Source of the DNA: Promethearchaeati archaeon
GTDB taxonomy: Archaea; Asgardarchaeota; Heimdallarchaeia; Heimdallarchaeales; Heimdallarchaeaceae
DNA length: 64,000 bases
Assembly (NCBI GenBank): GCA_013166775.1
Contig: JABLTJ010000004.1
Coordinates: forward strand, 64,001-128,000
Direction of reading: 5' to 3'
The position numbers were made by a program, and so were the translations under genes. This document shows, in pieces, positions 31,489-47,736 of this stretch (positions are counted from its first letter, which is position 1; each line of letters opens with the position of its first letter). Below the pieces are notes generated by a model. It saw only the letters and a list, made by a program, of their open reading frames with translations. It had not been told where the DNA came from and did no database searches.

Positions 31489-32232
31489 ATGAGTCTTTAT
31501 ATTATCCAGCCTACTGGAGAAATGACTGAATGTGAGAATAAAGAAGTTGCTCTTTCTTCAGACAATGTTTTGCTTGTTATCTCTCATGAACAGAAGAGAA
31601 TCTATACATGGATAGGAAATCAAGCAGCTCCACATTCAAAATTTGCATGTGCTAGAGAAACTGCGCGAATTAGGATGGAACTAGGATATAAAATCATGAA
31701 CTTAGAAGAATCTGAAACAAATAATGAATTTTTAGAAGCTGTTGATGAAGCTTGTAATATAGCAAAAAAACCAACCAAAAAACCAACTCCTGTTAAGAAA
31801 CCAGAACCTACTCCAGAGGCCAAGAAAGATGAAAAAACTAAAACTGAAACCAAACCTAAACCAGCAACAAAAACAGCAGCTGAACCAAAACCAAAAACAA
31901 CTGCAACAAAAACAACAACTAAAACAAAACCAAAAATCGAACCTAAAAAAGATACAACTCGTCGATACAGTAGTACAGCTATTAAAAGTCAAATTGTTGA
32001 TGTAGAACATGTCATAAAACAGCTTGAGATTTTGCAACCTATGAGTGATAGTATTAGAGACTATGTTATAATTGGGGATACGCTTTTTGTTGCTCCAGAA
32101 AATCTCGAAAAACCAGATACAGAATCGAAAGTATCTCTTCCAGATGGATCATTTGTAGCAGATGATTATATTCCCAGATTATTTTTGGAAAATGGTAAAA
32201 TTGTTGCTATTGAATTATGGAGAGAATCTTAA
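31489..32232 (+). CDS. Asgard gelsolin-domain protein (single gelsolin domain, K/P/T-rich linker, C-terminal domain)
   Basis: LSSDNVLLVI...IYTWIG...KF..AR...EESE...EFLE is the gelsolin repeat consensus; ORF open from 31441. Confidence 0.8.
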   Translation: MSLYIIQPTGEMTECENKEVALSSDNVLLVISHEQKRIYTWIGNQAAPHSKFACARETARIRMELGYKIMNLEESETNNEFLEAVDEACNIAKKPTKKPTPVKKPEPTPEAKKDEKTKTETKPKPATKTAAEPKPKTTATKTTTKTKPKIEPKKDTTRRYSSTAIKSQIVDVEHVIKQLEILQPMSDSIRDYVIIGDTLFVAPENLEKPDTESKVSLPDGSFVADDYIPRLFLENGKIVAIELWRES

Positions 32233-32762
32233 AGATCTCTGTTTTCCATTACTTTCTTAGCAATTATTGAGTAGATATCTTCTACTCCTTCTCCTAATTT
32301 AGCTGAAGATTCTAGAACAGTATAACCTTTTGCTCCCCATTCTTTACTTACTTCATCGTAAGAAACCGCTCGTTCTTCTTTAAGATCAGTTTTATTTCCA
32401 ACTATGATAATGGGTATATCAGGGCACCTTTCTCTAACTTCAGCAATCCAATTGTTAAGGTGTTCATAGGTTTCTTTTCTTGTAACATCGAAAACTACTA
32501 CTGCACCGTGAGAACCAGTATAATATCTTTTTCTTAAACTAACTAGTTTTTCTTGACCTACTGTATCAAACAAAACAACTCTTAGAGTAGTATCTTCATC
32601 AAATTGGATGTTTTTAGAGTGGAAGTCAACCCCAAGAGTAGGCAAATAGGAAGAAGAGAATCGATTTTGAGTGTATCTTAACGCTAAACTTGTTTTTCCT
32701 ACACTATAATCTCCAATGTTAAGGATTTTAATGATGTAAGTTACATTAGGGGTTAAGCTCAT
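32229..32762 (-). CDS. Rab-like small GTPase
   Basis: G1 GDYSVGKTS, G2 PTLGVDF, G3 DTVGQE, G4 NKTD, G5 SAK; no C-terminal Cys; ORF open to 32795. Confidence 0.92.
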   Translation of the reverse strand: MSLTPNVTYIIKILNIGDYSVGKTSLALRYTQNRFSSSYLPTLGVDFHSKNIQFDEDTTLRVVLFDTVGQEKLVSLRKRYYTGSHGAVVVFDVTRKETYEHLNNWIAEVRERCPDIPIIIVGNKTDLKEERAVSYDEVSKEWGAKGYTVLESSAKLGEGVEDIYSIIAKKVMENRDL

Positions 32763-32935
32763 TAAGTGGATATTGCATAAAGGATATTTGAGCATTGTGT
32801 TATCTTTCTTTTACATCTAACTCAAATTTTAAAAATATCTCATCTGAAAATTCTATCAATCAGTTCTTTAATGAAAAGATTGAAATTGCTTTTCTTAAAT
32901 ACTTAGTAGAGAGAACACTCACAGATTTGAGAGAA

Positions 32936-39385: not shown

Positions 39386-40177
39386 ATGGTGATAGACTTG
39401 TCAGACGAAGGCATATCAGTTAGTGACGCAATAAAAATTACTGAATTAGAGAACCAAGTACAAAATCTTCTAAACAAAGTCGAAGAACTCGAAAATATCA
39501 AGAAGGAATTAGAAGAAAAGAGCAGTAATCTAGAACAAGAACTCAATGATTTAAAAGAAAGATCTGCTGCGTTAAATGAAATTGAAAGCGCAAAAGCTAA
39601 TCTTGAAACTGAATTAGAAAATCTCAAACAAGAGAATTCTCAACTTAAAGAAGATAAAGAGAATTTAAATAATGAGTTTCAGGAGCTCAAGAATGAAACG
39701 ATGAGAAAAGATACTGAAATCTCAAATGTTAAGAGGGAATTTGAAACAAAAAGCGAAGGAATTCAAGAAAAAGAACACACCATTGAAAAGCTGAAAGAAA
39801 ATGTAGCTGAAATGGAGAGTATTAAAACAGAGCTTGAAGCGCAAGTTGAACAACTCAGAGATGAAAAAGCAACCATCGAAAATAAATATAATGAACTATT
39901 AACAGATTCATCTAGATTAGAACAAATAAAGGATGATTTAAGAAAGAAAGAGGAAGTTCTCAAGAGATTCCAAATCATCGCCGAATCTGATCCATCTTAC
40001 AGTTGGCTCTCAACTCTAGAACAATATAAAGTTATAGAACTTAAGAGGTTAGCAATGTCAACAGGATCTTCAACACATGCTATTCTAAAATACGTTAGAT
40101 TACTTGAACGAGCAGGTCTTGTAGATATAGAAATGCATGGAAAAGATGATCCAAATCCAACTATAAAGCTAAAGTAG
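39386..40177 (+). CDS. Long coiled-coil protein with C-terminal winged-helix domain
   Basis: ~190 aa of heptad repeats, then DP.Y..L..L....ELKRLAMSTG.....KYVRLLERAGLVDI. Confidence 0.75.
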   Translation: MVIDLSDEGISVSDAIKITELENQVQNLLNKVEELENIKKELEEKSSNLEQELNDLKERSAALNEIESAKANLETELENLKQENSQLKEDKENLNNEFQELKNETMRKDTEISNVKREFETKSEGIQEKEHTIEKLKENVAEMESIKTELEAQVEQLRDEKATIENKYNELLTDSSRLEQIKDDLRKKEEVLKRFQIIAESDPSYSWLSTLEQYKVIELKRLAMSTGSSTHAILKYVRLLERAGLVDIEMHGKDDPNPTIKLK

Positions 40178-41446: not shown

Positions 41447-41719
41447 TTATCTTTTTCTGATAACTTGGAAAACTACAGGATTAAAAGCATCAGGACATGC
41501 ATGAGTAGATACATCTTTATCTTCTAACCAGGGAAACTCAGCACCATAAGCCATAGCATATATTTTTGGTAAAACTGAATAAAGTGCATGTAAGCAAATT
41601 TTCCCATTTATTTCGTTTGTTTCAAAATTAAAAATAATTTCATCGCCTACACTATGACCTGCCACACAATGACCCTTTTGTTCAACAACTTTCAAGATTA
41701 TTTCATGTGCCATATTCAT
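41447..41719 (-). CDS. TIGR04076-family protein
   Basis: KGHCVAGH.VGD, ICLHA, CPD..NPVVF. Confidence 0.8.
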   Translation of the reverse strand: MNMAHEIILKVVEQKGHCVAGHSVGDEIIFNFETNEINGKICLHALYSVLPKIYAMAYGAEFPWLEDKDVSTHACPDAFNPVVFQVIRKR

Positions 41720-41757: not shown

Positions 41758-42840
41758 TTGTATATGGTTGAGAAATTTCGAAGTGATATAATCATTGAAG
41801 GGAGTGGTTTATCAGCTTCTGCATTAGCATATTATATTTCTCTTCATAATGATGATGATGTAATTATTTTGATTCAGGGGGAAACAAAAGAAACTGATAT
41901 ACCAAATTTCACTCCAGGATTCAGTTTTCCACAATTTGATTTGCCTGTGGATTCAATGGGTAATATTTTCAGAAAGACCAAAGATAATCTAAGAGATCTT
42001 CATTCAATATCAGGATTGTTTGAGTTTTCAATAAATCCGCTAGTTACAACGTATAGAGGAAGAAATTTTCAGAAATTGATGGAGAATCATAAGGAAAAAC
42101 TTGGAAAAACAAATATCAAACACAATTTATTGGATATTGAAGATATTTCTAACTATTATCCCTTTATTTCTCGTCAAGAGGAAATATATCTTTTGGAGAT
42201 ATTTGATTCAATAACATGTGCAAATATCAATGAATTATCCCATGCTTTTCAGAAGTTTGCAGAAGAAAATAATGTTATTATAACAAAAGAATCTGGAAAC
42301 CTAAGACTAGATGTGAAAAGTTGCCAATTACTATCAGAAGAGAGCAGCTATACAGCTAATAAGAATATCACAATTACGTCAAAACAACTATTTTCTTCTT
42401 CCTTTCATGAAGAATTTTTTGCTCTAGATATCTCGACACCAGTCTTTGAAAAATTTCCTAGAATTAATCTAATTGATTTCAACAACAAATCCTGTATGTG
42501 GTTGGAAGAAGCGGGTTATTTTCATATCTTTAGACTGTTTGATGTCGACGATGAAGAACGTAATAGAAAACAAGTAGAGAAAGATTTTGAAAAAATCTTT
42601 CCACATCTTGGAATACTTGAAATTGCTGATTCCAGCTTTGTTAAGTTAATGCAATGTAATAATCTGAGTAAATCACTTGGAACTTTAAGTTCCACCAACA
42701 TTCATTACTTCTCACTCCCAGTAGAGTCTGAGCTTTCATTGATTACAATTCTTGCAGAGAATTATTCATATTTAATTGCTGCTGATAGATTAAAGGAAAA
42801 TGGAGAGTTTAATTTTCTCAATCTGGCAACAAAAGACTGA
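41758..42840 (+). CDS. Divergent FAD-dependent oxidoreductase-like protein (DAO/sarcosine oxidase fold)
   Basis: DIIIEGSGLSASALAYY Rossmann start; ..I...YPFI; FP.L; size 360 aa. Confidence 0.55.
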   Translation: MYMVEKFRSDIIIEGSGLSASALAYYISLHNDDDVIILIQGETKETDIPNFTPGFSFPQFDLPVDSMGNIFRKTKDNLRDLHSISGLFEFSINPLVTTYRGRNFQKLMENHKEKLGKTNIKHNLLDIEDISNYYPFISRQEEIYLLEIFDSITCANINELSHAFQKFAEENNVIITKESGNLRLDVKSCQLLSEESSYTANKNITITSKQLFSSSFHEEFFALDISTPVFEKFPRINLIDFNNKSCMWLEEAGYFHIFRLFDVDDEERNRKQVEKDFEKIFPHLGILEIADSSFVKLMQCNNLSKSLGTLSSTNIHYFSLPVESELSLITILAENYSYLIAADRLKENGEFNFLNLATKD

Positions 42841-42853
42841 TTTCCAGATTCAA

Positions 42854-45211
42854 CTAATTTACCATTTCTTCTAAGAATTCACTGTACTTAATTAGATTAT
42901 CTTGACAATATCTTCTTATTACCCTTGTATGTGATTTAACGATTAGGTTATTTAGAAACTTTAGTTTCTTATTTTTCTTTATTGTATTCAGAATACCAAC
43001 AACGATTTCAGCTTTTAATCCCTTAGATTTCTCAATGAATTGCTTCCTTGATTTCGCAGTCATTTTAGTTAGCCCTTTAACTATACCATCGACACTATCT
43101 ACACCTAAATAATTTAATGAAGAAATTCCAACCCTAGCATTACCTTCAACTATCTGGTTGACTGTTTCTTGTATTATTTCAATATCCTGAGCAATAGCAA
43201 GGAGAAGTATTAATCGTTCTTTTGCTTTTTTGTTCCTTTCCTTTTGGAAGAATTTCCTCAATGGTTGAATCGCTGATTTTTCCATTTTTTCGATTATTTT
43301 TCGAAGATTATTGAACCATTTATCCTCAGCACTTTTTAGATTAGGAAGAATCAATTCGAGTGTTTTACTTTCCATTTTGCTTAATGCACTTATGGTAGAC
43401 TTTACAAGATGCTGATTTGAAGAAGTTAATTGTTGGGAGAGTTTCTTTACAATGGGAGAACCTATTTTTACTGCAGCATAAATTGAAGCTTCTCTGACCA
43501 ATTCTTTAGATCTCTTCATATTATTAATAATAACATCAATAACGCCTGGATCTTGCAATTCACCTAGAGCTCTTGTTGAAATTTCTGCTATACCGTCATC
43601 ATTATCTTTTGCAGCTTTTATTAATGAAATGAGAGCTCTCTTACTTTTTATTTTTCGTAAAGATTCAACAGCTTTTCGTCTTAATTTAATATTAGGGTCT
43701 GATAAGATTGATGAGAGGATAGGAACTGATTTAGTACCAAGATGAGACAACAAATCACAAGATTTTTCTCTAATTTCTGGATCTATCTCCTTCAAGGATT
43801 TAGTTAATAAATCGAAGATTTCGTCGTCTTTAGATCTTATTTTTCCTTTATGGAGAGCGAATGAATAACCTAGTTCTTGCAGTTCTTCTGATGGGTAGTA
43901 TAGAAATAGTATAATTCCAAGTTTCACACCTTGAGTAAGATTACTTTCAAGAAATCCATCTAGTGCGAGTTCGATATTATCTGTACCAAAATAATGTAAA
44001 ACCTCCACTGCATTTTTCCTAAGTTGTAAGTCATCATCAATCAGTTCTTCAATTAAAACCTTTATTGAGGGAGTGCCTAAAGTGAGTAGAGCTTGAGTAA
44101 CAGCTTCAAGAATCGATGGATTCTTTCCTGCTAGTTGAGTTGTTAATAATCTTATTGCTCCTTCGTAACCATACTTTTGACTCATAACCAGAGTTAAACA
44201 CTGTGCTGCGTTTCTCCTAACATTCCTTTTACCTTTTTGGAGAGCACTCATTAGATAATCATAACTCGATTCACCTATTCTTTTCATAGATTCAATTATG
44301 TAAGGAACGTTTCTATCTTTTTCAAGGGCAGTAATCAAACTTGGAAGTGCTCCATTGCCAATTAAGGCTAGAGACCTTGCAGCATAATACGCAGCGGGAT
44401 CACCCTTTTCAAATTGGTTTACAAGTATCCCAATAGCTTTTTCACTCCCTAGATTCCCTAATGCTTCAATAATAGCTAATTGTGTATCTATAGAGTCCTT
44501 GAAATTTGAGAGTCTCGTGATTAAAACATCAACATGCTTTTGATTATCTAGATGCATCAAAATAATTGAACCATATTTAATATGCTCTTCAACATTGGAA
44601 GTCAGAATTATTTCACGAACTTGCTTTACGAAAAGATACGTAAGTTCAGGAAATTGAGTGATTGTGAGAAGAGTAAGTTCGGTGAAAATAGGATTAGTTT
44701 GCTTTAATCTATAAGAGAGAATTTTCTTTATTTCCTTAGATTGCTCATCAATAAATTGAAAATTAATGAAAGTGTCATCATAATTTGATAAGGAAGAATG
44801 ACAGGTTCTGATGGCAATTTCAGTTAGAGTCGCTAGAACAGGTGTAACTATTTGTGCTTTACTAATAGCAGAAAAAATCTTCTTTGCTTGAAGTGTAGAA
44901 AGTATTTCGAAGAATAATTCAAAACTCTCATCCTTGATTAAATATGTATGAATAATAGGAATAAAATACTGAAGTTTATTGACTATAACAGCTTTTATTA
45001 GATTGTCATGATTTTTAAGATATTCTTGGATTATCTTGTCCGTTGGAATATAATCCGTACTAAATAATAATTTTGTAGCATTTACTCTAACTAGCGTATC
45101 CTTATCAGTTAGAAAATTGATCAATAAATAATAATCTTTAATGTTTTCTAGGCTTATTTTTTCTACTTTTTCTTCTTTCAAGAGGAGTCTTTTGAGCTCT
45201 TCTTCATTCAA
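42854..45211 (-). CDS. HEAT-repeat (alpha-solenoid) protein
   Basis: Repeated LxDxDxxVRxxA..LG units, e.g. LSDPNIKLRRKAVESL, LIDDDLQLRKNAVEVL. Confidence 0.88.
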   Translation of the reverse strand: MNEEELKRLLLKEEKVEKISLENIKDYYLLINFLTDKDTLVRVNATKLLFSTDYIPTDKIIQEYLKNHDNLIKAVIVNKLQYFIPIIHTYLIKDESFELFFEILSTLQAKKIFSAISKAQIVTPVLATLTEIAIRTCHSSLSNYDDTFINFQFIDEQSKEIKKILSYRLKQTNPIFTELTLLTITQFPELTYLFVKQVREIILTSNVEEHIKYGSIILMHLDNQKHVDVLITRLSNFKDSIDTQLAIIEALGNLGSEKAIGILVNQFEKGDPAAYYAARSLALIGNGALPSLITALEKDRNVPYIIESMKRIGESSYDYLMSALQKGKRNVRRNAAQCLTLVMSQKYGYEGAIRLLTTQLAGKNPSILEAVTQALLTLGTPSIKVLIEELIDDDLQLRKNAVEVLHYFGTDNIELALDGFLESNLTQGVKLGIILFLYYPSEELQELGYSFALHKGKIRSKDDEIFDLLTKSLKEIDPEIREKSCDLLSHLGTKSVPILSSILSDPNIKLRRKAVESLRKIKSKRALISLIKAAKDNDDGIAEISTRALGELQDPGVIDVIINNMKRSKELVREASIYAAVKIGSPIVKKLSQQLTSSNQHLVKSTISALSKMESKTLELILPNLKSAEDKWFNNLRKIIEKMEKSAIQPLRKFFQKERNKKAKERLILLLAIAQDIEIIQETVNQIVEGNARVGISSLNYLGVDSVDGIVKGLTKMTAKSRKQFIEKSKGLKAEIVVGILNTIKKNKKLKFLNNLIVKSHTRVIRRYCQDNLIKYSEFLEEMVN

Positions 45212-45798
45212 GTAGTCTGCCCCCTCTGCTTCTTGCGGTACTTAATGAAATCTATAATTCCAGAACCAAGATTCTCAAAAACTTCTTGAACATTTTCTCC
45301 AGTTCTTGCAGAAGTTTCATAGTATTTAACTTTGAATCCTTTAGATTTGTATTTCTTATTTAAATCTTGAACGTATGCTAATGCTTTTTCTTTTACATTT
45401 ACTCGTTTTGTTTTAGAAAGAAGGTCCATTTTGTTACCTAAAACATAGAATGGAACAATACCTCTTTCTGTACCTATTTCTAATTCTTTCACCCATCTAT
45501 CTAAAGTTTTTAGTGTAGAAATTTTCGTAGCGTCAAAAACCATTAATGCACCTAAAGTTCCCCTATAATACAACATACGAACTTTCTCGAAAATTTCTTG
45601 ACCAGCAATGTCCCAGATTTGAAATAAAACTGAATAATCGTAAATTTCTTTTGGTAAAGAAGCAAAATCAGCTCCAATTGTTTCAAGATGTTTTGTGATA
45701 AAACCTTCCCCCAAATACGAACGTCTTAGACTTGTTTTTCCAACCGCTGCTTCTCCTGCTAAGATGACCTTTAAAAATAGTTTTTGACCATAGCTCAC
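45208..45798 (-). CDS. Rab-like small GTPase
   Basis: G1 GEAAVGKTS, G2 TIGADF, G3 WDIAGQE, YYRG, G4 NKMD, G5 SAR. Confidence 0.93.
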   Translation of the reverse strand: MSYGQKLFLKVILAGEAAVGKTSLRRSYLGEGFITKHLETIGADFASLPKEIYDYSVLFQIWDIAGQEIFEKVRMLYYRGTLGALMVFDATKISTLKTLDRWVKELEIGTERGIVPFYVLGNKMDLLSKTKRVNVKEKALAYVQDLNKKYKSKGFKVKYYETSARTGENVQEVFENLGSGIIDFIKYRKKQRGQTT

Positions 45799-45800
45799 TG

Positions 45801-47570
45801 TTATCCCGTCTCACTAGTTATATTGTTTTTAGATAAATGCTTTGTTCGTCCTAGTTTATTATTAATAAAATTGAAAACAGCTGAAAGAGGGAGTAAGAAT
45901 GAATAAATCAAATATAATGCACCTAAAGCTGTAATCAACAATACAAGAATTTCTCCATTAAGAATTAAACCTAAATTAGGTGTAAGCAACATCCCTAAAA
46001 CGAAATTGTTTACTACATGTAAGAAAATAGCTGCATGTAAACCATACTTATAGAAAGCATATCCAAAGATTAATCCAGCTACTGCAGCTTGGAAAATCTT
46101 CCCTTCTTGCCAATAAGGATAACCTAATTGATAGTGTACATACCCGAAACTATAGGATGAAAAGAGAAGAAAAAGAAAATCAATTAATCCTAATTTCTTC
46201 CAGCGTCCTGTTAGGTAAAAGAGGGGATTCTTAGGTTTTTTTTCAAATATATATCTTGCAACTCTAGACGAATTTGAATGATTTTTTTTGTTTCTTTTAA
46301 TCATTATTTGTGATAATTTTATTATTCCATAAAAAATACCATTTAGAATAAACAGAGGTAGTCCAAACAAAAGAAAACGATATGTTATTTCTTCATTAAA
46401 ACCAGCCCAATATAATTGTGATAACTGTACGTATAGTACATCATAATTGATATCTATTTGTGAAGCTATGGGTATTCCTAAATTAAGAAGAATAATGATT
46501 ATGAATGAAGCTAAAGCTAGATTTAAGCAAGCCAAGTTCATTACAGGAATTATATCACTGACCATTATTCGTTTGAAGAATTTCTCTGTTCTATTTTTCG
46601 AGGTTCCAGGCAAAGTTGATGGAGGGCTATATTCCTTTGGCTGAATATCAGGAGAGAGAATGTTGAATGCTATATCATCCATTGATTCTTCAGGAGAAAA
46701 ATCTCCAGCATCAGATGGTACTTCCTCTAATGACAGTTTTTTGTCCTTTCTAGGTAAGTAGAATAATAGAATAGTAATACCGAAGAGAGCAAAACACATT
46801 AAAGATTGAGTAAGTTTCCAATCAACGATAAATTTTGATGGAATTGAGGTTGATACAAAAAATTCTTGTCTAAAACCCAACTCAGCTTTGTAAGAGTAAA
46901 AGAAATTAGGATAAGTAAAAGAAAGATTTGCGACAACTGTATCAGAAGGTATTGAAGGAAAGACGATGAAAACAAGAAAATTAGAAACAACAAGCATTAT
47001 TGCTACAACAACCATACTATTTTTCCACAGTTTATTTATGGAATACTGAGATTGTTTAACAAGTGATCCCAAACCAATTTTCCTATCATCTGGTAAGATG
47101 ATTTCTTTATGGATCAGTAATCCAAGATGCTGTTCAATTTTCGGATAGGTGAAGATTCCAATTAGAGAGCTCAATATAGCTATTTGTAGAAATTGAAGTA
47201 GGTTAGTAGAGACTGTGATTAGGATAAAATTATCTCTGAAAATTGTTAAATAGACAATAATAGTATAAATCAGAATAATACCAAATAAAGGTAAGAAGAA
47301 TTTAAACAGATGAGTGAGTGCATTATCACCTTGATCCTTTTTATTTATTATAAACCATCTTCGAATTTTCCAACCATATAAAATGTAAAAGATTACTGAA
47401 ATGAAATAAATTACTATAGAAATTATGAAGCCTTGTTCTAGGTAGTAGAAGCCGAAATCAATATCATTGGCAGAGAATAAGGTAATCATAGTGTTTAATG
47501 CAGATAAAGCAAGAATGAAAACAGGAATAAAGAGTGTGTCAAGAATCATTCTACTGATATTCTTCCGCAT
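45801..47570 (-). CDS. CPBP (Abi/Rce1-like CAAX) intramembrane glutamic protease with multi-TM N-terminal extension
   Basis: EEITYR, FGYVH, HVVNN motifs; more than 10 TM segments. Confidence 0.85.
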   Translation of the reverse strand: MRKNISRMILDTLFIPVFILALSALNTMITLFSANDIDFGFYYLEQGFIISIVIYFISVIFYILYGWKIRRWFIINKKDQGDNALTHLFKFFLPLFGIILIYTIIVYLTIFRDNFILITVSTNLLQFLQIAILSSLIGIFTYPKIEQHLGLLIHKEIILPDDRKIGLGSLVKQSQYSINKLWKNSMVVVAIMLVVSNFLVFIVFPSIPSDTVVANLSFTYPNFFYSYKAELGFRQEFFVSTSIPSKFIVDWKLTQSLMCFALFGITILLFYLPRKDKKLSLEEVPSDAGDFSPEESMDDIAFNILSPDIQPKEYSPPSTLPGTSKNRTEKFFKRIMVSDIIPVMNLACLNLALASFIIIILLNLGIPIASQIDINYDVLYVQLSQLYWAGFNEEITYRFLLFGLPLFILNGIFYGIIKLSQIMIKRNKKNHSNSSRVARYIFEKKPKNPLFYLTGRWKKLGLIDFLFLLFSSYSFGYVHYQLGYPYWQEGKIFQAAVAGLIFGYAFYKYGLHAAIFLHVVNNFVLGMLLTPNLGLILNGEILVLLITALGALYLIYSFLLPLSAVFNFINNKLGRTKHLSKNNITSETG

Positions 47571-47736
47571 TTTAATGACCTTTAAATATTATTACTTAAA
47601 GTTCTTTTCAGTCTTTAGGTATTTATGAATTTTTGATATCCAATAGTTTAAGGAAAAGCTTTTAAACATGAATACGACTTTTTGTTCTAATTCAAACATA
47701 AGCAAACTAAAGACAACCGATTTACAGGTGTATTAT

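Follow-up and report, generated by a model that had tools for sequence, protein, structure and literature searches.

A predicted three-gene operon encoding a CPBP-fold membrane protein, a small GTPase of Rab-like type, and an α-solenoid of HEAT repeats was analyzed in a 64,000-nucleotide stretch of archaeal DNA (the window; contig C2:64001-128000) from a Heimdallarchaeaceae genome of 3.85 Mb that is 88.7% complete. Gene order inside and outside the family indicates that the evolutionary core of this operon is an old module of two genes, the first for a Rab-like GTPase and the second for a HEAT solenoid with ~770-840 amino acids, and that the CPBP gene was added upstream in Heimdallarchaeaceae only. 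The reading that we favor, at a probability of roughly 55%, is that the GTPase and the HEAT protein would be a switch-and-partner pair working at the membrane, with the CPBP protein as an added anchor or regulator in Heimdallarchaeaceae.

The genes follow one another head to tail on the minus strand in the order CPBP, GTPase, HEAT, and the operon and its upstream spacer occupy the following positions of the window:

45801-47570, minus strand: gene 1, CPBP-fold membrane protein, an open reading frame (ORF) of 589 amino acids
45208-45798, minus strand: gene 2, Rab-like small GTPase, an ORF of 196 amino acids with a GTG start
42854-45211, minus strand: gene 3, HEAT-repeat α-solenoid, an ORF of 785 amino acids with a TTG start over the GTPase stop
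47571-47667, no strand assigned: spacer of 97 nucleotides common to the operon and the divergent Alba gene, the inferred and probable operon promoter

The initial annotation of this DNA had described the same three-gene array with a 2-nucleotide gap, and both the ORF boundaries and the sequence of the CPBP/GTPase junction (TAA-CA-GTG) agree with it exactly. It had also described a 4-nucleotide ATGA overlap between the GTPase and HEAT genes. The overlap of 4 nucleotides is present at 45208-45211, formed by the GTPase stop TGA and the HEAT start TTG, but it reads TTGA, and the ATG close by (45205-45207) belongs to the frame of the GTPase, which is the wrong one for the HEAT gene. The two internal junctions leave no room for separate promoters. 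The 97-nucleotide spacer, which contains a TATA-like A/T-rich stretch (47581-47600), is the probable promoter of the operon. At the other end, a convergent gene of 360 amino acids terminates 13 nucleotides downstream of the HEAT gene.

Of the 24 genomes belonging to the genus, 23 carry the trio, and so do the other four genera of this five-genus family. The one genome without it (G009) also lacks Top6A, and the region is taken to be unassembled there because Top6A is missing too; its absence was therefore rejected as a case of co-loss. In 22 orthologous loci from the five genera the junctions range from -14 to +39 nucleotides, with recurrent GTGA, TAATG, and TTGA overlaps. The trio thus keeps tight or overlapping junctions in every family genome in which the region is assembled, in agreement with the coupled operon of the initial annotation, and this layout indicates one translationally coupled operon conserved across Heimdallarchaeaceae. 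The surroundings are conserved as well. Collinearity in the family extends over ~25 kb (36684-62138 of the window; loci L021-L036 and L067-L071), comprising a RING-like gene, a dUTPase-like gene, RadA, a coiled-coil gene, UbiA, a 90-amino acid gene, the 360-amino acid gene, the trio, Alba, Top6A, and a giant Top6B. Because this whole region is collinear, synteny within the family shows an operon and not, by itself, a functional triad, and it was rejected as proof of function. The flanks are partially rearranged in genera g12 and g13, where the trio is kept together. The two closed Heimdallarchaeum genomes have the Top6 block separated from the trio and a shuffled gene order on the opposite flank. 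The genome of the window holds 36 Ras-family matches, 4 CPBP genes, and ~15 HEAT_2 genes, and none of its other HEAT_2 or CPBP genes adjoins a Ras-family gene.

The product of gene 2 matches the Pfam Ras profile (1.2e-35), and its G1-G5 residues are all invariant in 15 orthologues. Its best solved relatives are Rab7 (6e-29), Ypt51, Rab11, and the Thorarchaeota Rab 7ezb (2.6e-25), and nearly all of the top 60 solved matches are Rab/Ypt proteins. The RabF-like motifs listed in the initial annotation were located at residues 41-45 (IGADF), 59-63 (FQIWD), and 77-80 (YYRG), together with a VLGNKMDL motif, and the polybasic, Cys-free tail KYRKKQRGQTT that it described is likewise present:

45211-45243, minus strand: short polybasic tail at the C-terminal end of the GTPase, residues 186-196, from the alignment

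The entire GTPase contains zero cysteine. Its tail extends ~10 residues beyond helix α5 with no long linker, and follows a conserved pattern, [FY]-R-[KR]-x-x-R with invariant R188 and R192, which is conserved only in the family that has the CPBP gene. No cysteine was found in the tails of the GTPase orthologues, and no C-terminal cysteine among the 21 GTPase paralogue C-termini listed. The protein is classed as Rab-like, not as a bona fide Rab, because of this ~10-residue tail without cysteine.

The fold class of the gene 3 product, a HEAT α-solenoid, is certain from the profile match and the model. Pfam HEAT_2 matches in 4 stretches (4.5e-35, 120 bits), and the AlphaFold2 (AF2) model, with a predicted local distance difference test (pLDDT) value of 90.1, consists of ~49 helices with no strand-rich domain. 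Foldseek matches include CAND1, SF3B1, mTOR, karyopherins, and TBCD at a probability of 1.0, with template modeling (TM) scores of 0.16-0.28 and 10-13% identity; karyopherins rank no higher than CAND1 or SF3B1, and neither Pfam IBN_N nor Adaptin_N matches the protein. The model thus resembles long solenoids generically and indicates no specific eukaryotic family, so that of the karyopherin/adaptin pairing suggested earlier the HEAT_2 solenoid stands, and no specific relationship is shown (TM ≤0.28). Conservation is highest at residues ~230-600, and the best-kept part, 334-463, is common even to distant relatives. Prediction of the HEAT-GTPase complex from two alignments gave a score of 0.29 against a mark of 0.32, which counts neither for nor against binding.

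With the exception of the sister family f2, which is represented by one genome, no CPBP or HEAT orthologue was found outside the family when three further families of the same order, the remainder of the class, and 399 genomes sampled from the phylum were searched, two candidates being scored per genome in the phylum-wide scans. The f2 genome encodes a GTPase (46% identity) followed by a HEAT protein of 826 amino acids that is collinear with the trio HEAT protein over 591 columns (hhalign probability 98%). The gene upstream of this pair encodes a soluble protein of 318 amino acids; it was considered as a short CPBP protein and rejected on its hhalign probability of 0.1% and its soluble sequence. 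A profile search of 1.84 billion representative proteins yielded three more full-length, single-stretch HEAT relatives of 769-839 amino acids, each directly preceded by a Ras-family gene at gaps of 26, 47, and 20 nucleotides. The neighborhoods of these three distant pairs, two of which come from metagenome-assembled genomes (MAGs) labeled Odinarchaeota and Thorarchaeota, are entirely different and contain no CPBP gene. Run against 399 Asgard genomes, a reverse profile built from the three distant HEAT proteins matches only the trio HEAT protein, nearly from end to end, and a search of genome contigs with one of them alone (P0179) returned no relatives. Recurrence of the pair in four further lineages with different flanks lends good support to the GTPase-HEAT link drawn in the initial annotation. 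Because the outside pairs have different flanks and no CPBP gene, they point to an ancient, context-independent GTPase-HEAT module to which the CPBP gene was added within the family.

The GTPase trees, obtained in quick maximum-likelihood searches with supports from the Shimodaira-Hasegawa-like approximate likelihood ratio test (SH-aLRT), place the trio GTPases in one clade (100) with a long stem branch and the f2 GTPase as its sister (84-90). A further clade (99) unites the three distant paired GTPases, so that all paired GTPases belong to one subfamily; this clade falls inside the same larger group (82), which also includes members from families f3 and f4 that lack a HEAT gene and have TatD, LanC-like, and PTPS genes as neighbors. 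The distant paired GTPases (L120:4198-4974, L121:203-964, and L122:4066-4980) carry an N-terminal FGFFR(K/R)KK motif, present only in pairs without CPBP. Behind this motif come 60-110 residues of low-complexity, P/K/S-rich linker and then a second basic patch. The motif and linker may be a built-in membrane tether. The Heimdallarchaeaceae GTPases have no N-terminal extension and no FGFFR(K/R)KK motif.

The gene 1 product is modeled as a four-helix N-terminal add-on followed by an eight-helix core of the CPBP (Rce1-like/Abi) fold. Public databases place its start at Met8, giving 582 amino acids, and NCBI names its orthologues "CPBP family intramembrane metalloprotease." The profile match is marginal because the full-length protein gives no Pfam match; Rce1-like (PF02517) matches residues 330-589 when these last 260 residues are scanned alone (32.5 bits versus a cut-off of 22.4), and a six-frame search of the genome finds gene 1 at 33.9 bits. 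The AF2 model (pLDDT 74.5) contains 12 long helices, predicted to be membrane helices. Residues 160-577 align with archaeal CPBP clusters of the ESM Atlas at TM scores, by target, of 0.63-0.72 over 299-317 residues. The best solved fold match in VIA-align is SpdC (6u0o_A; Z 7.3, root mean square deviation 4.5, 156 aligned), with Rce1 (4cad_C) at Z 5.7, root mean square deviation 3.9, and 134 aligned. Foldseek found no match of the whole model to the PDB at E ≤0.001, the fold being recovered by VIA-align and the atlas only, and phmmer found no Rce1 match for the C-terminal domain among PDB sequences. The protein has the following parts:

47091-47570, minus strand: N-terminal add-on, residues 1-160, with four transmembrane helices that lie beyond the canonical CPBP core in the AF2 model
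46377-46394, minus strand: CPBP motif 1, EExxxR (E393, E394, R398), invariant in all orthologues of the alignment
46194-46298, minus strand: family-specific basic loop, residues 425-459, with 12 K+R, inserted between motifs 1 and 2, from invariant columns and the K+R count
46134-46148, minus strand: CPBP motif 2, FxxxH (F475, H479), with His to Gln in seven genomes of the genus
46005-46019, minus strand: CPBP motif 3, HxxxN (H518, N522), NxxxE/S in the same seven genomes

The helices of the add-on span residues 2-35, 40-75, 83-108, and 115-140, and its conserved residues are G66, W67, R70, Q129, and G138. Solved structures gave only generic, uninformative helical matches to residues 1-160, and an ESM Atlas feature search with residues 1-275 gave no usable match. 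All three CPBP motifs are intact in the window protein, as first described (E393-E394-x3-R398, F475-x3-H479, and H518-x3-N522), and also in 14 of 21 further orthologous loci that were examined. The substitutions H479Q and H518N occur in six of these 21 loci and in a seventh genome checked separately (G008), and with N522E/S they define the degenerate-motif genomes (G005, G008, G010, G012, G013, G018, and G024). In these seven genomes the CPBP gene is intact and linked, and the GTPase tail is the same. The CPBP identity in this subclade is 51-53% at a HEAT identity of 74-75%, compared with 64-66% in other lineages, indicating that the protein evolves somewhat faster there than elsewhere yet stays clearly constrained. 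In most lineages the CPBP protein is probably an active protease, because all catalytic residues are kept over deep divergence. The basic loop holds an invariant N448-P-x-x-Y-L-x-G-x-W457 sequence, is retained in the subclade with degenerate catalytic motifs, and is a candidate cytoplasmic docking site. Charge counts show that the N terminus, loops 66-91, 143-185, 272-334, and 425-459, and the C terminus are basic, and these parts presumably face the cytoplasm. The protein diverges much faster than its operon neighbors (32-54% identity versus 55-75% and 41-64%). The 12-helix form with the special loop was found in this operon only, and the other three CPBP genes of the genome are ordinary.

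We propose that the GTPase would act as a nucleotide switch and the HEAT scaffold as its partner, either effector or regulator, with the conserved central region of the solenoid as the most plausible contact site for the GTPase. The module would act at a membrane, a location suggested by complementary features, namely the polybasic tail where the CPBP gene is present and the N-terminal FGFFR(K/R)KK motif where it is not. In Heimdallarchaeaceae, the conserved basic cytoplasmic loops of the 12-helix CPBP protein would, along with the GTPase tail, provide membrane contact, and in the distant lineages without CPBP the FGFFRKKK motif on its long flexible linker would give this contact instead. The CPBP protein, perhaps with protease activity as well, would probably be an anchor or regulator comparable to SpdC, a CPBP-fold protein described as acting through partner binding in a non-proteolytic way. 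Any proteolysis would be secondary and not a CaaX-type maturation of the GTPase. A non-catalytic role is possible because seven genomes keep the conserved gene with H479Q and H518N and because the best solved match is SpdC.

Several observations weigh against this proposal. The full set of CPBP catalytic residues is preserved across deep divergence in the majority of orthologues, which argues for a role of proteolysis in most lineages, and with ~25 kb collinear, inherited gene order could account for part of the CPBP linkage. Neither membrane motif is present in the f2 GTPase. The nearest GTPases of families f3 and f4 have no HEAT neighbor, and no HEAT orthologue was found in those families. 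The tree supports are SH-aLRT values only, from quick searches (82-100), and the distant MAGs bear taxon labels given by their submitters. A more elaborate version of the proposal, self-contained membrane recruitment in which the CPBP protein would be a receptor (in some lineages also a processing enzyme) that docks the GTPase, whose GTP state would recruit the HEAT solenoid, is unlikely as it stands. If true, it would correspond in a prokaryote, through analogy and perhaps through descent, to the eukaryotic GTPase-driven recruitment of solenoid coats, tethers, or transport receptors, and the older GTPase-HEAT pair of several Asgard lineages would be its ancestral form.

The best surviving alternative, which we regard as possible but doubtful, is that the GTPase and the HEAT protein are the sole partners and that the CPBP protein is an unrelated membrane protease sharing their transcript, with a role in housekeeping, immunity, or peptide processing like many bacterial CPBP/Abi proteins. 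The existence of GTPase-HEAT pairs elsewhere without CPBP fits this explanation, as do the much faster divergence of the CPBP protein than of its neighbors, the collinearity of the whole region in the family, and the three other, ordinary CPBP genes of the genome. A passenger gene of this kind is harder to reconcile with the CPBP/GTPase stop/start overlaps, which are maintained or re-created as GTGA or TAATG in five genera, or with the long stem branch and new polybasic tail of the GTPase, which appear exactly where the CPBP gene does. The CPBP gene also stays intact after loss of catalytic residues, and its 12-helix, special-loop form was found in this operon only; both speak against a passenger gene.

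That the CPBP protein is an Rce1-like protease clipping the GTPase tail without prenylation, with the HEAT protein as effector of the processed GTPase, is very unlikely. The CPBP fold, the intact EExxxR, FxxxH, and HxxxN motifs in the window and most orthologues, the tight coupling of the CPBP and GTPase genes, and the co-occurrence of the CPBP gene with a polybasic tail bearing invariant R188 and R192 are what this model would lead one to expect. However, the GTPase is Cys-free, the ~10 residues after helix α5 look conserved rather than removed, the operon persists, with the same tail, in the seven genomes whose motifs 2 and 3 are degenerate, and the GTPase-HEAT pair occurs without CPBP in four other lineages. 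Asgard Rabs also lack a prenylated C-terminal extension and the enzymes for it (PMC10933270). No match to the PPTA prenyltransferase alpha subunit was found in the genome, although at 88.7% completeness this does not prove the absence of a prenyltransferase, and the genome's "ICMT" matches are best explained as DUF1295 proteins. The analogy to Rce1 and Ras drawn in the initial annotation is not upheld by these results. Neither a substrate with a C-terminal cysteine nor the set of prenyltransferase alpha and beta subunits plus ICMT that marks eukaryote-type CaaX processing was found here, and a forerunner of that pathway in this operon is not supported by the sequences.

Two further loci were noted in this context. 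One partial prenyltransferase alpha-alpha toroid match in the genome (53 bits, profile positions 37-162 of 304) is a protein of 415 amino acids (G000:C76:14466-15713; L119:67-1314, minus strand). On contig C102, an ordinary CPBP gene of 319 amino acids lies ~0.7 kb from a DUF1295/steroid-reductase-like membrane protein that matches the ICMT model weakly, with a YdjM-like gene between them. This CaaX-like pair (G000:C102:10915-13458, L118) was rejected, the "ICMT" being DUF1295 and the gene in between lying on the opposite strand.

Adjacency without functional meaning, that is, three unrelated genes in a slowly rearranging chromosomal region, can find support in the ~25 kb collinear in the family (including Top6A/B, Alba, UbiA, and RadA) and in the ~30 Ras-family and ~15 HEAT genes of the genome, among which some adjacency is expected by chance, but it is hardly credible and for the GTPase-HEAT pair the comparisons largely refute it, given that their adjacency is seen again in four other lineages whose flanks differ, that the HEAT profiles find each other reciprocally, that the junctions are too tight for separate promoters, and that the trio stays together where the g12 and g13 flanks are rearranged.

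Several neighboring genes of the window were also recorded. The 360-amino acid gene (41758-42840, plus strand) has no Pfam match and an N-terminal Rossmann-like IIIEGSGLSASALA motif, and is possibly a diverged FAD-dependent oxidoreductase; it evolves fast (25-43% identity across the family) yet always adjoins the trio. Beside it, a Cys/His-containing ORF of 90 amino acids (41447-41719, minus strand), also with no Pfam match, is highly conserved, at 66-81% identity between species and 92% in the closest genome. Conservation throughout the family is also seen for the coiled-coil protein of 263 amino acids (39386-40177, plus strand), whose Pfam matches are only weak and filament/ATG-like; a relative with 28% identity sits close to a related GTPase of family f4 (L087:7704-8525). 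A second Ras-family GTPase of the window (32229-32795, minus strand; 188 amino acids; Pfam Ras 1.2e-45) is only ~33% identical to the operon GTPase, and its ends overlap or abut flanking ORFs of the opposite strand.

All three proteins of the operon are members of known families. No published description of a CPBP-GTPase-HEAT operon was found, nor any literature combining CPBP and Asgard. Titles and abstracts on CAAX and Asgard, or on small GTPases, gene neighborhoods, and HEAT, contain nothing on the trio, and the accessible text of a solenoid preprint contains nothing on it either. A term search of Liu et al. (bioRxiv 10.1101/2020.10.19.343400) showed no mention of the trio, of CAAX, or of prenyl, and one generic sentence on HEAT. 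Asgard archaea have dozens of small GTPases, almost none of which has been matched to partners because their genes are seldom in operons (PMC10933270). In the present case, a single Rab-like subfamily is tied to a specific HEAT solenoid by an adjacency that is repeated and independent of context; in one family the tie extends to a specialized membrane protein. It provides three concrete proteins as candidates for nucleotide-dependent binding and membrane recruitment and bears on the possible origin of the GTPase-solenoid partnerships that are central to eukaryotic trafficking and transport. It is no evidence for an archaeal precursor of Ras/CaaX processing.

When compared with the CPBP family (PF02517; MmRce1, 4cad; Staphylococcus aureus SpdC, 6u0o), the C-terminal eight helices and the three signature motifs of the gene 1 product are shared. 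In contrast to that family, gene 1 adds four N-terminal helices, a disordered loop of 60 residues, and the conserved basic loop of 35 residues between motifs 1 and 2; its Pfam match is weak and confined to the C-terminal domain scanned alone, and its genome context offers no CaaX substrate. The degenerate motifs 2 and 3 of one subclade recall the partner-binding, non-proteolytic role attributed to SpdC. With the eukaryotic pairs Ran-karyopherin beta, Arf-adaptin/COPI, Arl2-TBCD, and Rag-mTORC1, the operon has in common a small GTPase genetically tied to a long HEAT solenoid, whereas its HEAT matches are generic, with no solenoid family standing out. The nearest likeness among Asgard gene clusters is the conserved Roadblock (LAMTOR1-like)/Rab-like GTPase/DENN operon predicted in Liu et al. 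(bioRxiv 10.1101/2020.10.19.343400), which also ties one Rab-like GTPase to candidate partners; the operon analyzed here differs in having HEAT and CPBP partners, no roadblock or DENN, and a much narrower phyletic range. The gene 2 product shares its RabF-like motifs, all G motifs, and its best solved matches with Asgard Rab-like GTPases (Thor-Rab 7ezb) and Rab7/Ypt, and like other Asgard Rabs it has no prenylatable Cys tail (PMC10933270). Operons are uncommon for Asgard small GTPases (PMC10933270), and unlike most of them gene 2 sits in a conserved operon, belongs to a subfamily defined by its HEAT neighbor, and carries a short family-specific polybasic tail.

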